64,000 nucleotides of DNA from Candidatus Latescibacterota bacterium (lineage in GTDB: Bacteria > Latescibacterota > UBA2968 > UBA8231), in contig OZ220090.1 of NCBI GenBank assembly GCA_964291625.2, forward strand, positions 320,001-384,000, written 5' to 3'. The first letter of the stretch is position 1. Each line of letters opens with the position of its first letter. Below the pieces are notes generated by a model. The model worked only from the letters and a program-made list of their open reading frames with translations. It made no database searches and had not been told where the DNA came from. This document shows, in pieces, positions 44,149-50,765 of this stretch. A program made the position numbers and the translations under genes.

Positions 44149-46815
44149 CGGTACCGACACCCGTCACCCTGCGCCGCCTCTGCCGCGGCGCCCTGCCGGC
44201 CATCCTCGGCGCCAGCGACGGCAAGGGGATGATGAAGATGGTGGAGGAGGTCGTCCGCCACGACCGCTGGAACTCCTTCGACCGCTTCCACGATACCACC
44301 GGGGTCCTCGTCGACATGTACGAGAAGGCGGGGGCCGGCGCCGAGGTGACCCCGGTGCAGACCGGGGGCCGCATCGGCACCGGGCGCTGGATCATCCAGG
44401 AGGCCCAGGACGTCAGCTCGGCCACCCTCGACGTGGTGCGGCCCTTCCGCGAGCGCGTCGCCGACTACCGCGACAACCCCTGGCACGCGGTCCAGTGGAC
44501 GGCGGCCACCCCCAGGGGCGGGCTGCGCTGCGAGCTGGTCGTGGTCGACGACGAGGCCGCCCTCGACCGCATGGGGCCCGACAGCCTCGAGCGGGCGGGC
44601 GGTGCTCACCCGCCTCGACATCCGCGGCCGCATGGAGCGGTTCGCCCAGAAGGGAGCGGCGGCGGTGATCATGGAGAAGGAGGTGCCCAACAACCCCGGC
44701 GCCGTGGCCTGGATCAAGTTCGGCTGGGGCGCCGTGCCCATGGCTCACGCCACGGCCAGGCTGGTGGGGCTGGTCGTGTCCCGGCGCCAGGGGGACCGCC
44801 TCCGGGGGCAGCTTCGGCAGCATGGGCGCCTCGTGGTGCAGGTCCGCGTCGACGCCCGGCGCTACGTGGGCAGCCACGACGTCGTCTGCGGGGTGGTCCC
44901 CGGCGGCGGCGATCCTCAGGACGAGGTCTGGGCCATCGCCCACTCCGCCGAGCCGGGGGCCGTGGACAACGCCTCGGGCTGCGCCGTCACCGTCGAGATC
45001 GCCCGGGTCCTCGAGGGGCTCATCGCCTCCGGCGCGCTGCCGCGCCCGAGGCGGACGATCCGCCTGATCAACGGCTACGAGTGCTACGGCTTCTTCGCCT
45101 ACCTGGAGAGGGTCAAGCGGCTGCAGCCGCCCCTGGCCGGGGTCTGCATCGACACCCTCGGCTCCCGGCCGGGGATCTGCGACGGCCGCCTCGAGTGGCG
45201 GTCCACGGTGCCGGGCTCCGCGGGCTTCGTCGACTGGATCGGGGAGAAGATCCTGCGCTCCACCCTGCGGCAGTACCGGGCCGCCGGTTACCACCTCGCC
45301 CTCGGTCCCTTCATGGCCACCAGCGACACCCTCATAGGCGATCCCCAGTACGGCTACCCCTGTCCTTGGATCACCAACCACCACAAGCGCGACGGCAGCT
45401 CCTGGGACGCCTACCACACCTCCGCGGACCAGCTCGAGCTGCTGAGCCCGGCGGGCCTCAAGACCTGCGCCGCGGCCATGGCCGCCTACCTCTACTACCT
45501 GGCCGACGCCGCCACGCCGGAAGTCCTGCAGATCGCCCGCTCCGAGACCGAGCGCCTGACCGGGGAGCTGCGCGCCCACCGCCGCCGCCTCGACCGCGAC
45601 GGCGCCGAGTTCCTGCGCCGCGCTCACGAGACCAGCCTGACGCGGCTGCAGCGCTGGCTCTGGGGGGGTGACCGCCGCGAGGTGATGGCCGAGCTGGGCG
45701 AGATGAGTCGCCAGATGGGACAGGCCGCCTCCAGCGTCCGCCGCCGCGGACCGGCTGTCCGCTCCACCGCGGCCCTGCGCCGCATCCCGCGCCGCAAGGC
45801 CCTGCTGACGCCGACTACCGAGAACCTGCCCACGCCGGTGGCCCGCAGGATCTCCGGCGCCCGCCAGAGTCCATGGGCTTTGTACTGGGCCGACGGCCGC
45901 CTCACCCTCGCCGAGATCACCGCCGCCCTCGCCTGGGAGCGGGGGGGCCTGCTGGCGCCCGGGGCGACCCCGAGGCGGGGAGAGGTCAGGAGCGAAGACG
46001 TGGTCCGGTTCTTCGAGGCCCACGCCGAGATCGACTACGTCGACCTGCCCGAGCGCCATGAGATGGTCGACAAGGCGAAGATCGTCGCCGACCTGCGCCG
46101 CCTCGGCGTCGAGCGCGGCATGGACCTCATGGTCCACAGCTCCCTGTCGAAGATCGGACACGTGGAGGGCGGCGCCGAAACGGTCGTCTCGGCCCTGCTG
46201 CAGGCGGTGGGATCATCGGGGACGCTGCTCATGCCCTCCTTCAACCACCGCGCCGCCCAGGTCTACAACCGCATGGCGACGCCGACCACCAACGGCGCCA
46301 TCCCCGACGCCTTCTGGCGCCGTCCCGGGGCGGTGCGCAGCGAGCACCCCACCCACGCGGTGGCCGCCATCGGGCCGCGCGCCGAGCGCTACTGCGCCTC
46401 CCACCTGGAGGCGGGGATCTGGGAGCCGGAGAGCCCCATCGGCCAGCTGGTCCACGGCGGCGGCTGGATCCTGGCCCTCGGCACCACCCACTGGACCTCC
46501 ACGGCCTACCACGTGGCCGAGATGTCCGTGCCCTGCGGCTGCATCGACCCCTTCGGCAACATCGACCGCGTCGTCGGCGGCGACGGCCGCGTCGAGGAGG
46601 TCTGGGGACTGGCCTTCCGCCGGGGGGAGTGCCCGGTGGAGATCTCCCCCAAGCTCGACGACGCCCTCGACCGCCGCGGACTGCAGCGGCGCGGCAGGGT
46701 GGGGGAGGCGGAGTGCGAGCTGGTCCGGGCCGAGGACCTGTGGCGGGTTCGCCGCGAGCACCTGCGGACGGTCTGCCCGACCTGCCGCATCGCCCCCAGC
46801 TACCGGGACGGGTGA
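44145..46815 (+). CDS. M28/DUF4910-like peptidase fused to AAC(3)-family N-acetyltransferase (frameshift near 44590)
   Basis: PA-like region, AHSAEPGAVDNASG, YHTSAD, winged-helix LYWADGRLTLAEI; from about 46063 LGVERGMDLMVHSSLSKIG, GTLLMPSF, RSEHPTHAV, TAYHVAE in the same frame. Confidence 0.8.
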
Positions 46816-48333: not shown

Positions 48334-49233
48334 GTGGCCGGCCCCCTGACCCTGCTCAGCATCGGCGCCCACCCGGCCGATATCTTCGACCAGTCGGGCG
48401 GCACCATGGCCCACCACGTGGAGCGCGGCGACCGCGTCGCCTGCGCCGTCCTCACCCACGGGGCCCGGGTCCACGACGCCGAGGTGAGCGACGCCATGTT
48501 CCACCGGGATCGGGTGCCGGAGGCCGGGGAGTTGAGGGACCTCATGGCCGAGCGCGCCGAGGTCAAGGCCGGGGAGGTCCGCCGCGCCTGCGCCCTCCTC
48601 GGCGTGGAGGAGATCCACTTCCTCGGCTTCGACGACGCCGTGCTGCAGGCGACCGAGGAGATCGTGCGCCGCCTGGCGAGCCTGCTGCGCCAAGTGCGCC
48701 CCCACGTGGTCCTCACCCACTTCCCGTACGAGGGCGACGCCGTCAACGCCCACGCCGTCACCGGCCGCATCTGCCTGCAAGCCCTGGGGCTGGCCGGCAG
48801 CGTCGACCCCGGCGACCGGAACCCGCCGCACAAGACGGCGCAGGTCTTCTTCTTCGGCACCGGCGCCGCGCCCCTGCCGCGGAACGTGTGGGGCGCCCGG
48901 GGCGGCTTCTACAACGACATCTTCATCGACATCGGCGACGTGGTGGAGAAGAAGCTCGCCGCCCTCGATGCCCTGGTGAGCCAGGGCTACGGGGGCGCCT
49001 ACGCCCGCAAGCGCATCGAGACCTCGGACGGCGCCTTCGGCAACGCCGCCCACTGCAGCTACGCCGAGGGCTTCATCAAGATGAACGCCGAGTGCCACCA
49101 CCACCTGCCGGTGACCGACCGGGCCCTCGAGCTGGCGGGACTGAGCGACCACGAGGTGATCCCCCGGGCCTCGGTCCGGCACGATCCGGGTCCACGCGAG
49201 GCCGGCTCCGGGGGGCCGGATCGTACGGCTTGA
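48334..49233 (+). CDS. PIG-L/LmbE family deacetylase
   Basis: IGAHPAD, LTHG, RPHVVLTH, KKLAAL...SQ, YAEGF. Confidence 0.82.
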   Translation: MAGPLTLLSIGAHPADIFDQSGGTMAHHVERGDRVACAVLTHGARVHDAEVSDAMFHRDRVPEAGELRDLMAERAEVKAGEVRRACALLGVEEIHFLGFDDAVLQATEEIVRRLASLLRQVRPHVVLTHFPYEGDAVNAHAVTGRICLQALGLAGSVDPGDRNPPHKTAQVFFFGTGAAPLPRNVWGARGGFYNDIFIDIGDVVEKKLAALDALVSQGYGGAYARKRIETSDGAFGNAAHCSYAEGFIKMNAECHHHLPVTDRALELAGLSDHEVIPRASVRHDPGPREAGSGGPDRTA

Positions 49234-49258
49234 CATGGAACGCCCCCCGGCGTAAGGT
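49230..49258 (+). promoter_or_regulatory. Near-consensus sigma70 promoter
   Basis: TTGACA(49230-35)-17 nt-TAAGGT(49253-58). Confidence 0.7.
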
Positions 49259-49264
49259 ACTGAC

Positions 49265-49426
49265 ATCCCCACGGCCGGCTCCTCCGGGAACCGGCCAGAA
49301 CCGGATCGACGGTAGGCCGCCTCGTACCGCCGTTCCGGAAAAGTCGAGCGGTCCTCTGCTTTCTCCTACGCTCGACTCTGTTTCTCCATAGACAGGGGGC
49401 CCTCGGGCCTCCTGTCTATTTTTCTT
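49265..49426 (+). ncRNA. Candidate structured small RNA (~160 nt) or cis-regulatory leader
   Basis: Lies between the promoter and an intrinsic terminator; three stem-loops (49273-96, 49301-38, 49342-77) plus the terminator; repeated CUG(C)UUUCUCC motif. Confidence 0.55.
49388..49426 (+). terminator. Rho-independent terminator
   Basis: ATAGACAGGGGGCC...GGCCTCCTGTCTAT stem followed by a T-rich tract. Confidence 0.8.
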
Positions 49427-49466
49427 GCGCCCCTTACGGACTCCCTCCTCCTCGACCCCCCGGCCC

Positions 49467-50765
49467 ATGCTCCTCGCCCCCGAAGCCGCCGCCCTCGACC
49501 GGCGGCTGGATCTGGTCGACGCCTCCGAGCCCCGGATCCGGGCCCTGGTCCCGGAGGCGGACCGTCGCCGCCGCCTGGTCACCGAGATGGGGGCCGCGCC
49601 CGAGGGCTCCCTGCGGCACCTGCTGGTGGGTGTGAAGGACATCTTTCACGCCCGGGGCCTGCCCACCCGGGCAGGTACCGCCTTGCCGGGCGGCCTCTTC
49701 GCCGCGGAGGGCGTGGAGGAGGCCGACGCCGACTGCGTCGCCGCCCTGCGGGCGGCGGGAGCCGTGGTTCTGGGCAAGGCGGTGACCACCGAGTTCGCCT
49801 ACTTCGAGCCGGGGCCGACGCGCAACCCGCGAGAGCTCGCCCACACCCCGGGCGGTTCCTCCAGCGGCTCGGCGGCGGCGGTGGCGGCCAGGTACTGCGA
49901 GCTGGCACTGGGGTCCCAGACCGTGGGCTCCGTCATGCGGCCAGCCGCCTACTGCGGCGTCGTCGGCTTCAAGCCGACCTTCGGGCGCGTCTCCCGGGGC
50001 GGCCTGCTGGCTTGCTCGCCCTCGGTGGACACGGTGGGGCTCTTCGCCCCGGACACGGCTACCGCGGCCCGGGGGGCGGCGGTGATCCTCGATGCCTGGG
50101 ACCCCGCCGCCGCCGAGGGCCACCGGGAGGCGCCCCGGCCCGTCCTCGGGGTTCCGGAAGGGCCGTACCTGCGGCAGGCTACGCCCGAGGGACTCGCGGG
50201 GTTCGAGGAGCAGGCGGCGCGCCTGGAATCCGCCGGCTTCCGGGTGGAGCGGCTGGAGATCCTGACCGACATCGACGAGGTCAACCAGCGCCACCGCGAC
50301 CTGCACGGGGCGGAGATGGCCCTCGAGCACGCCCCGTGGATGGAGGAGCACCTCCATCTCTACAAGCCGCTGACCCGCCAGTTCCTGCTGCGCGGACGGG
50401 AGATCCCCGAGGCACGGCTCCTGGCTGGCAGGGAAGGGCGAGGCCGCCTGCGGCAACAGTTGGAGCAGATCATGGCGGCGGAAGGCGTCGACCTCTGGAT
50501 CTGTCCGTCGGCGCCGGGGCCCGCCCCCCGGGGGCTGCAGGCCACGGGGGACCCGGTCATGAACCTGCCCTGGACCCACGCCGGCCTGCCGGCCCTGAGC
50601 CTGCCGGCGGGCCTCGTGGGCCAGCTGCCCCTGGGGCTGCAGTGCGTCGCCGCCCACGGCCGCGACGAGGCCCTCCTGGCATGGGGCGCCGCCCTCGAGG
50701 CGGCCCTCGGTCCCGGCGGCGGCCGAGCTTCGACCCACGCGAGCGCCGGTCCTATATTTCACTGA
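49467..50765 (+). CDS. Amidase signature family protein
   Basis: GVKDIF, GKAVTTEFA, PGGSSSGSAAAVA, GSQTVGSVMRPAAYCG; start approximate. Confidence 0.9.
   Translation: MLLAPEAAALDRRLDLVDASEPRIRALVPEADRRRRLVTEMGAAPEGSLRHLLVGVKDIFHARGLPTRAGTALPGGLFAAEGVEEADADCVAALRAAGAVVLGKAVTTEFAYFEPGPTRNPRELAHTPGGSSSGSAAAVAARYCELALGSQTVGSVMRPAAYCGVVGFKPTFGRVSRGGLLACSPSVDTVGLFAPDTATAARGAAVILDAWDPAAAEGHREAPRPVLGVPEGPYLRQATPEGLAGFEEQAARLESAGFRVERLEILTDIDEVNQRHRDLHGAEMALEHAPWMEEHLHLYKPLTRQFLLRGREIPEARLLAGREGRGRLRQQLEQIMAAEGVDLWICPSAPGPAPRGLQATGDPVMNLPWTHAGLPALSLPAGLVGQLPLGLQCVAAHGRDEALLAWGAALEAALGPGGGRASTHASAGPIFH

Follow-up and report, generated by a model that had tools for sequence, protein, structure and literature searches.

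Does the gap that follows a PIG-L family gene (48334-49233) and precedes the ATG of an amidase gene (49467) in a Candidatus Latescibacterota genome hold a gene of its own, and if so, what could its RNA act on? The gap lies in a 64,000-nt stretch of DNA (here called the window; positions 320,001 to 384,000 of contig OZ220090.1, assembly GCA_964291625.2). The initial annotation, made from the letters of the DNA, had read positions 49230-49426 as a promoter-to-terminator unit for a structured small RNA (sRNA) with repeated anti-Shine-Dalgarno motifs, acting in trans, or else as an attenuator for the genes downstream. To our knowledge, almost nothing is known about the RNA regulators of Latescibacterota-type bacteria, and a full-text literature search for Latescibacter* together with sRNA found nothing related.

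A structured RNA gene and its homologs

The unit is made up of the following parts, all of them on the plus strand.

49230-49426, +: sRNA gene unit from promoter to terminator, for an RNA of ~162 nt with four hairpins
49230-49235, +: -35 box TTGACA, unchanged in 12 of 12 aligned homologs (relatives read CTTGACA)
49253-49258, +: -10 box TAAGGT, separated from the -35 box by a 17-nt spacer
49265-49272, +: single-stranded 5' tail AUCCCCAC, a candidate seed; predicted transcript start at ~49264-49266
49273-49296, +: hairpin 1, structural, GGCCGG (49273-49278) with CCGGCC (49291-49296), from fold and covariation
49301-49338, +: hairpin 2, apical loop GGCCGCCUCG (49315-49324) with the core CGCCUCG (49318-49324), from fold and covariation
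49342-49377, +: hairpin 3, 18-nt loop (49351-49368) with CCUC and UUUCUCC (49360-49366), from fold and covariation
49378-49387, +: single-stranded linker CUGUUUCUCC with a second copy of UUUCUCC, from sequence and unpaired probability
49388-49426, +: intrinsic terminator, 14-pair stem (49388-49419) followed by TTTTCTT, from terminator scan and covariation

The promoter, the three hairpins, the linker and the terminator thus all lie where the initial annotation had placed them. A simple promoter scan omitted TTGACA-17-TAAGGT because TAAGGT agrees with TATAAT at only three of six positions. The promoter is taken as real because it is conserved among the homologs: in 12 of 12, the -10 box is TAAGGT, TAACGT or TAAAGT at a constant spacing, with a variable spacer between the boxes; TTGACA is also found in five further metagenome copies, and more distant homologs have CTTGACT or CTTGACA as the -35 box together with -10 boxes of the TAGGAT/TAGGGT type. 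The transcript start given above is deduced from the position of the -10 box. When the 12 copies were aligned together with their flanks, conservation extended from CTTGACA to the T-tract, and the flanks could not be aligned. The sole match of the simple sigma-70 scan between 47000 and 52000 was TCGACC-17-TATATT at the end of the amidase gene (50730-50758, plus strand). Across the same interval, 49388-49426 was the only terminator-like site detected; it probably also ends the upstream amidohydrolase/PIG-L transcript, and the TGA stop codon of the PIG-L gene falls within the -35 box.

The minimum free energy fold of 49262-49426 consists of exactly the four hairpins (-81.1 kcal/mol, z = -6.3), and none of 200 shuffles folded as well. 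The reverse strand also gave a strong fold (z = -5.0), and therefore folding alone cannot assign the strand. RNAalifold recovered the same four helices from the 12 copies, with 43 pairs, of which 16 had changed on both sides. Indeed, 99.0% of the 506 cells in this alignment were paired, and none of 500 column shuffles matched the observed pairing, number of covarying pairs or covariation score; when the 3' partner was shifted by 1 to 3 columns as a control, only 35 to 51% were paired. With 18 homologs, 97.2% of 761 cells were paired and 34 of the 43 pairs covaried, in an alignment that was fitted to the covariance model and is hence biased towards it by construction. All four helices are supported by covariation; the covarying pairs numbered 5 of 9 in hairpin 1, 3 of 8 in hairpin 3 and 5 of 12 in the terminator among the 12 sequences, and 9 of 9, 7 of 8 and 9 of 12, respectively, among the 18. 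Covariation among relatives, which the initial annotation had named as the check on its structure, is therefore present in both alignments (16/43 and 34/43 pairs).

G-U cells outnumbered A-C cells 49 to 1 in the 12 sequences and 65 to 2 in the 18, and this excess shows that the sRNA is read from the plus strand. The longest open reading frame (ORF) starting with ATG has 22 codons, is seen in some relatives and begins within the hairpin-2 stem; its counterpart is missing from 9 of the 18 homologs, including those of the window's clade. Since this frame is not conserved, the RNA is non-coding, and a small-ORF reading was rejected. Among the features generally expected of a stand-alone sRNA gene, the element thus has its own promoter and terminator, conservation limited to the unit, variable flanks, compensatory changes and no coding capacity. 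We conclude that 49230-49426 is almost certainly a genuine gene on the plus strand for a structured non-coding RNA that is transcribed independently; the conserved borders, the covariation and the strand bear out the independent sRNA gene of ~160 nt that had been proposed.

How far does this gene extend among relatives? A BLAST search of 40 relatives with a 206-nt stretch gave full or near-full matches in every one of the nine remaining genomes of the genus and in two further genera, with identities of 73 to 98%; all other matches were short and arose by chance. A covariance model (R1) found true matches in 18 of 76 genomes of the window's family (the family makes up the entire order), and a second model built from 18 copies (R2) added G023 at 45 bits, bringing the carriers to 19 of 76. 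Beyond the family, the model search found no homolog in the three remaining families of the class (56 genomes) and none in a phylum sample (87 genomes); because Infernal was run with its stricter filters and many of the genomes are incomplete, absence here stands for not found in those searched. The carriers span 7 of 18 genera, with 10 of 10 genomes in g1 (the window's genome included), 2 of 2 in g6, 3 of 3 in g22 and the single genomes of g8, g12, g2 and g15, and the sRNA was found in none of the 31 genomes of the largest genus, g14. About a quarter of the genomes in this family of uncultured marine bacteria thus have the sRNA. Each carrier has one copy; in the window's genome, the covariance model gave one match, and BLAST gave otherwise only short chance matches.

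Model matches of ~25 to 34 bits (L038, L159-L167) were rejected as tRNA 3' ends followed by a terminator or as terminators alone. A pattern scan with one genome per species gave at least 119 stretches; among the 80 listed, 11 were confirmed by the model, all in known carriers, and two matches of ~20 bits were judged to be due to chance. Of the 11 public records with a homolog among the listed matches, seven are labelled as Candidatus Latescibacterota and four as Gemmatimonadaceae or Gemmatimonadetes. The pattern scan of JGI metagenome contigs gave 61 stretches, eight of which were confirmed at E <= 1e-6. Taken together, the family comprises 19 species genomes and 5 further metagenome copies. 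The phage, plasmid and viral collections gave no match to the sRNA and hence no support for a mobile or phage origin. Within genus g1, the loci of the window's clade (L025/L028) have a G+C content of ~73%, versus 59 to 63% in the other five species (L020-L023, L032); this high-GC clade consists of G000, G002, G004, G006 and G007.

Exposed pyrimidine motifs and ribosome-binding sites

Which parts of the RNA could act on other molecules? Among the 18 copies, the unpaired motifs are kept while the stems drift. The most conserved element is the apical loop of hairpin 2, with a mean top-residue frequency of 0.96, six invariant columns and the conserved core CGCCUC(G); the corresponding frequencies are 0.67 for the stem and 0.58 for the loop of hairpin 1. 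In the 5' tail, CAUCCCCA is invariant in 12 of 12 homologs, and CCAUCCCCA(C/G) comes after the -10 box in g22 and G010 as well; in g22, G010 and G020 (L033-L037), an extra hairpin lies between the 5' CCAUCCCCA motif and hairpin 1. UUUCUCC is conserved in the loop of hairpin 3, a loop that holds CUGCUUUCUCC in the window's copy; the whole hairpin is deleted in G009 (L032:1501-1632, minus strand). The linker has a conserved U(U/C)CUCC; UCUCC is kept in the 12 close homologs, and distant ones have UUYYCCC variants. For the window's copy, the predicted unpaired probability is 0.99 in the 5' tail, 0.99 in the hairpin-3 loop, 0.92 in the linker and 0.68 in the hairpin-2 loop region.

The anti-Shine-Dalgarno motifs of the initial annotation hold up in part. 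Those in the hairpin-3 loop and the linker are conserved and predicted to be unpaired, but CUCCUCC in hairpin 1 (49279-49285) is partly paired (mean unpaired probability, 0.58) and restricted to the window's clade, relatives having a UUCG-like tetraloop in its place. Because it is not conserved, we do not regard it as a functional motif. The most conserved element, the hairpin-2 loop, had not been listed. A further pyrimidine run, CUCCCUCCUCCUC, lies outside the unit in the gap between terminator and amidase gene (49427-49466), where GGACUCCUCCUCGA is kept in the close clade.

Does the organism use Shine-Dalgarno sequences that such motifs could cover? Its 16S rRNA ends in ...CACCUCCUUUCU, and the first starts of 3104 long ORFs are preceded by a peak of GGAG, AGGAG and GGAGG at -12 to -9. 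Internal ATG/GTG codons, taken as a control, were not preceded by a peak of the Shine-Dalgarno type. A peak confined to first starts indicates that the organism uses classic ribosome-binding sites, and the CCUC/CUCC motifs that the sRNA exposes are complementary to the Shine-Dalgarno sequence of the host.

We think it probable, if far from certain, that the sRNA acts mainly by masking ribosome-binding sites in trans. The proposed sequence of events is as follows. The sRNA's own sigma-70-type promoter (TTGACA-17-TAAGGT) and strong terminator would yield an RNA of ~162 nt, in which three hairpins and the terminator hairpin would keep four stretches rich in C and U unpaired, namely the 5' tail AUCCCCAC, the loops of hairpin 2 (GGCCGCCUCG) and hairpin 3 (CCUCUGCUUUCUCC) and the linker CUGUUUCUCC. 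These could pair with G-rich Shine-Dalgarno regions of mRNAs (GGAG, GAGG, GGAGAAA, GAGGCG), and this pairing would block ribosome binding. The C-G-rich pairing may substitute for a chaperone such as Hfq; members of the Hfq, CsrA and ProQ families were not found in the genome, which is 95% complete.

Action in trans and pairing with ribosome-binding sites are inferred, and the search for targets did not give a conserved one. A scan for complements of eight nucleotides gave 445 matches, mostly within coding sequence, and LytB, DUF6088, MerR-family, carbamoyltransferase and enolase-superfamily genes have perfect matches of 9 to 11 nt over their Shine-Dalgarno sites. A 47-letter stretch on contig C1 of G000 (minus strand, reverse-strand offsets 757010-757253) came up because it happens to match the complement of the hairpin-2 loop. 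It occurs four times at 81-nt spacing within one long ORF, three copies being identical and one having two changes, and probably marks a tandem protein repeat of 27 residues.

Is the RNA made as a discrete molecule? An index search with a 1101-nt query returned RNA-library runs that each held a small share of the query, and four were compared in detail. Run X3 (study P2, marine) gave a 167-nt contig over 49282-49444 with six differences and one gap at a depth of 11.9, and run X5 (study P3, sponge) gave a 162-nt contig over 49246-49407 with five differences at a depth of 2.8. Both contigs are 95 to 97% identical to the window's copy, and their variant letters agree with copies of the G004/G006 type, which assigns them to close relatives. 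X3 and X5 left the adjacent 48800-49243 and 49466-49760 uncovered, which hints weakly at an sRNA far more abundant than its neighbours. Runs X1 and X2 cover parts of the flanking genes and not the sRNA, and we did not use this gap as evidence. We infer expression as a discrete RNA.

Several results weigh against masking in trans by a discrete RNA. The contig ends depart from the predicted ends, X5 beginning 19 nt early and X3 ending 18 nt past the U-tract; moreover, such contigs reveal neither the strand nor the ends of a transcript, and they may stem from carried-over DNA. Across 3035 start regions, duplex energies failed to single out targets (mean, ~-17 kcal/mol for the two loops), since pairing is strong throughout a genome of 70% G+C. 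Also, GAGGCG was not enriched among the GAGGNN sequences in Shine-Dalgarno windows (52 occurrences, rank 7 of 16). The 10-nt match in the LytB/IspH leader, the one match that was followed across relatives, is not kept in G007; LytB itself was not found in G001, G014 and G010 with the query used. No target is established. In relatives, pairing with the tandem partner described below, rather than with mRNAs, could be the reason why the hairpin-2 loop is conserved. Finally, in the window's clade the terminator may have a local effect in cis on the amidase/PhyH/UxuA genes downstream because the amidase ATG lies 41 nt beyond the terminator and no promoter was seen between them.

A tandem partner RNA and other readings of the locus

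The relatives have a second conserved unit, ~90 nt long and encoded on the strand of the sRNA, which ends 31 to 109 nt before the matched start of the sRNA. All carriers outside the window's high-GC clade have it, and the tandem arrangement was found in 12 of 12 species-genome pairs and on 5 metagenome contigs. The loci of this partner are listed here; none of them is in the window.

L023:1691-1829, -: second unit
L034:1308-1446, +: second unit
L030:1305-1458, +: second unit
14 further loci: second unit

The partner consists of a promoter (CTTGAC-N17/18-TAGTAT), a variable 5' hairpin and a terminator, whose stem covaries and whose loop reads GAGGCGA without exception in 16 of 16 copies. It has no match in Rfam. 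Some 60 to 130 nt upstream of the partner transcript (e.g., in L023 and L034) are the conserved palindromes TCTAG-N6-CTAGA and ATCTAGAGCTAGAT and a CAACCG...AAAAAACA block, in front of the partner's promoter; these operator-like palindromes suggest that the partner RNA may be controlled by a DNA-binding regulator. A model of the partner (R3) found it in 14 carriers, in G003 at a contig start and in G008 at the end of another contig, and gave no match in the five high-GC genomes (G000, G002, G004, G006 and G007). A search of the window's genome with nhmmer likewise found no partner (best E = 17). The R3 match in G066 was rejected as an ordinary terminator after a coding gene.

The partner loop GAGGCGA is the exact complement of the hairpin-2 loop, and in all of 12 genome pairs the two loops could form an unbroken run of six to seven Watson-Crick pairs. 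We rank this pairing as a rival or an additional role because it was noticed post hoc, because the loops cannot covary and because the window's clade is without the partner. As an additional role, it would fit an ancestral two-RNA circuit of this family, which the sequences make conceivable but which we put forward only tentatively: the C/U-rich regulator would mask ribosome-binding sites, and the loop of its tandem partner would kiss the hairpin-2 loop and so switch the regulator off. If this were true, the high-GC clade would have deleted the antagonist plus a GNAT gene, leaving the regulator unchecked.

As a rival, the pairing would be the main function: the sRNA and its partner would form an RNA-RNA pair, in which the hairpin-2 loop CGCCUCG would serve mainly to kiss the partner loop CGAGGCG/GAGGCGA and one RNA would sponge the other, as in the case of RosA and RoxS. 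In the window's clade, the partner would then have been lost, and the sRNA would be an orphan, unchecked or reduced in role. The partner does lie upstream in tandem, with its own promoter, palindromes and terminator, in all 12 species-genome pairs; model R3 found it only in sRNA-carrying genomes; its invariant loop sits on a covarying stem and could form the six to seven pairs in each of the 12; and the G-rich sponge RosA of the C-rich RoxS is a precedent (PMC8216469). However, G000, G002, G004, G006 and G007 have kept the sRNA and its loop without the partner, both loops are invariant and thus show no inter-loop covariation, and the complementarity, noticed post hoc, has a rough chance of ~1 to 5% (a 7-nt match of a 9-nt loop against ~60 unpaired bases). 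We therefore consider it unlikely that this pairing is the main function.

Slightly less likely still is a role mediated by protein, in which a rigid scaffold would present repeated C/U-rich single strands to an RNA-binding protein and so titrate or recruit it, the sRNA being a decoy or a guide. Several similar pyrimidine-rich motifs are indeed arrayed on one scaffold, as in protein-titrating RNAs, and a conserved mRNA target was not found. On the other hand, the search for CsrA, Hfq and ProQ family members found none, no candidate protein is consistently encoded beside the sRNA, and base pairing is the simpler account of motifs that mirror the organism's Shine-Dalgarno sequence.

Could the element instead serve the genes that flank it? 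Neighbouring genes were called with a crude ORF search and a filter on codon-position G+C plus Pfam, not taken from an annotation. In the G000 clade, the terminator is followed by an amidase gene; its place is taken by a sulfatase gene in G001 and G003, by one for a GFO/IDH/MocA oxidoreductase in G005 and G008 and by one for a Zn-dehydrogenase (Zn-ADH) in g22 and G020; in 3 of 15 loci examined (G016, G009 and G010), the next gene is on the opposite strand and thus convergent. The genes upstream vary as well (PIG-L, GNAT, DsbA-like, beta-lactamase-family, xylose-isomerase-like barrel). Since the flanking genes differ among genomes, the sRNA is not a dedicated leader; one constant downstream family on the same strand, the mark of a riboswitch or attenuator, was not found. 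The attenuator for the amidase-PhyH-UxuA-PhyH genes, offered as the alternative in the initial annotation, is therefore disfavoured. A cis-acting leader whose terminator gates read-through, from the upstream operon or its own promoter, into amidase/PhyH/UxuA would fit the 41 nt between terminator and amidase ATG in the window's clade (no promoter evident between them by eye), the overlap of the -35 box with the PIG-L stop, by which upstream transcripts must enter the element, and the RNA-library contig that starts ahead of the predicted start, but it is very improbable given the unconserved and in 3 of 15 loci convergent downstream gene, the element's own conserved promoter and the covariation of all four helices, terminator included, as one fold, with no conserved antiterminator pairing found.

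Inspection of 49427-49466 by eye gave no obvious Shine-Dalgarno sequence or promoter hexamers. Farther upstream in the window, an ORF of 737 aa (44602-46815, plus strand) combines an N terminus like peptidase M28/DUF4910 with an Antibiotic_NAT (aminoglycoside 3-N-acetyltransferase) domain at residues 510-721.

Comparison with known RNA families

Masking of ribosome-binding sites, the reading that we prefer, is known from other sRNAs. Does the present one belong to any of their families? At gathering thresholds, no Rfam family matched anywhere in the window, in agreement with the initial annotation, which had recognised no known family. In E-value mode, the window's copy gave only sub-threshold matches (nine listed; ar14, Scr3202 and microRNA models). 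The sRNA family is previously uncatalogued, though of a familiar kind.

It gives an uncultured lineage a well-supported RNA family with a covarying four-helix structure and a defined promoter and terminator. It also adds to the evidence that pyrimidine-rich sRNAs of the Shine-Dalgarno-masking type arise repeatedly in unrelated phyla, including where Hfq was not found. For the specialist, one more sRNA family of a familiar kind is little surprise. The tandem partner in relatives offers a simple testable sRNA/anti-sRNA pair, with the window's clade as a natural deletion of the partner.

The best near-match in Rfam was the ar14/cuckoo family (RF02344), at 19.3 bits versus a gathering threshold of 58.8 (E = 0.2). 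Cuckoo RNAs have two to four hairpins, each with CCUCCUCCC in its loop (PMC4615179). The cuckoo/ar14 RNAs (CcsR1-4 and NfeR1 of Alphaproteobacteria) and the window's sRNA both have two to four adjacent hairpins plus a terminator. Moreover, both have anti-Shine-Dalgarno-like pyrimidine motifs, and the stems of both drift by compensatory changes (PMC4615179). In contrast to the cuckoo RNAs with CCUCCUCCC in every loop, the loops of the window's sRNA are UCCG/UUCG-like, GGCCGCCUCG and CCUCUGCUUUCUCC; its exposed motifs are unlike one another, and hairpin 1 is without any. Furthermore, cuckoo RNAs are often multicopy and belong to Alphaproteobacteria, whereas this sRNA is single copy in hosts outside that class. 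Membership was rejected on account of the sub-threshold score, the different loop motifs, the other host and the copy number.

BjrC80 (RF02354), an sRNA of Bradyrhizobiaceae, matched the G001 homolog over its full length with 31.9 bits versus a gathering threshold of 80 and was not among the nine Rfam matches listed for the window's copy. The two share C-rich loops and a terminator, a likeness of composition and layout only, and membership was rejected because the score was below the gathering threshold.

In mode of action, the sRNA would resemble the cuckoo RNAs and also the C-rich RoxS/RsaE of Firmicutes. RoxS/RsaE pairs its C-rich single strands with G-rich ribosome-binding sites (PMC8216469, PMC6158497), and RosA is a stand-alone G-rich RNA that is controlled by a transcription factor and neutralises RoxS (PMC8216469). 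By analogy, the window-type sRNA and its tandem partner in relatives would again be a C-rich sRNA with a G-rich counterpart. The two systems differ in that they have no kinship in sequence or Rfam and belong to different phyla; the present putative pair is encoded in tandem, has a single proposed loop-loop contact and is missing its partner in the window's genome. If the two-RNA circuit were true, it would represent a genetically linked counterpart of RoxS/RosA that had evolved independently.

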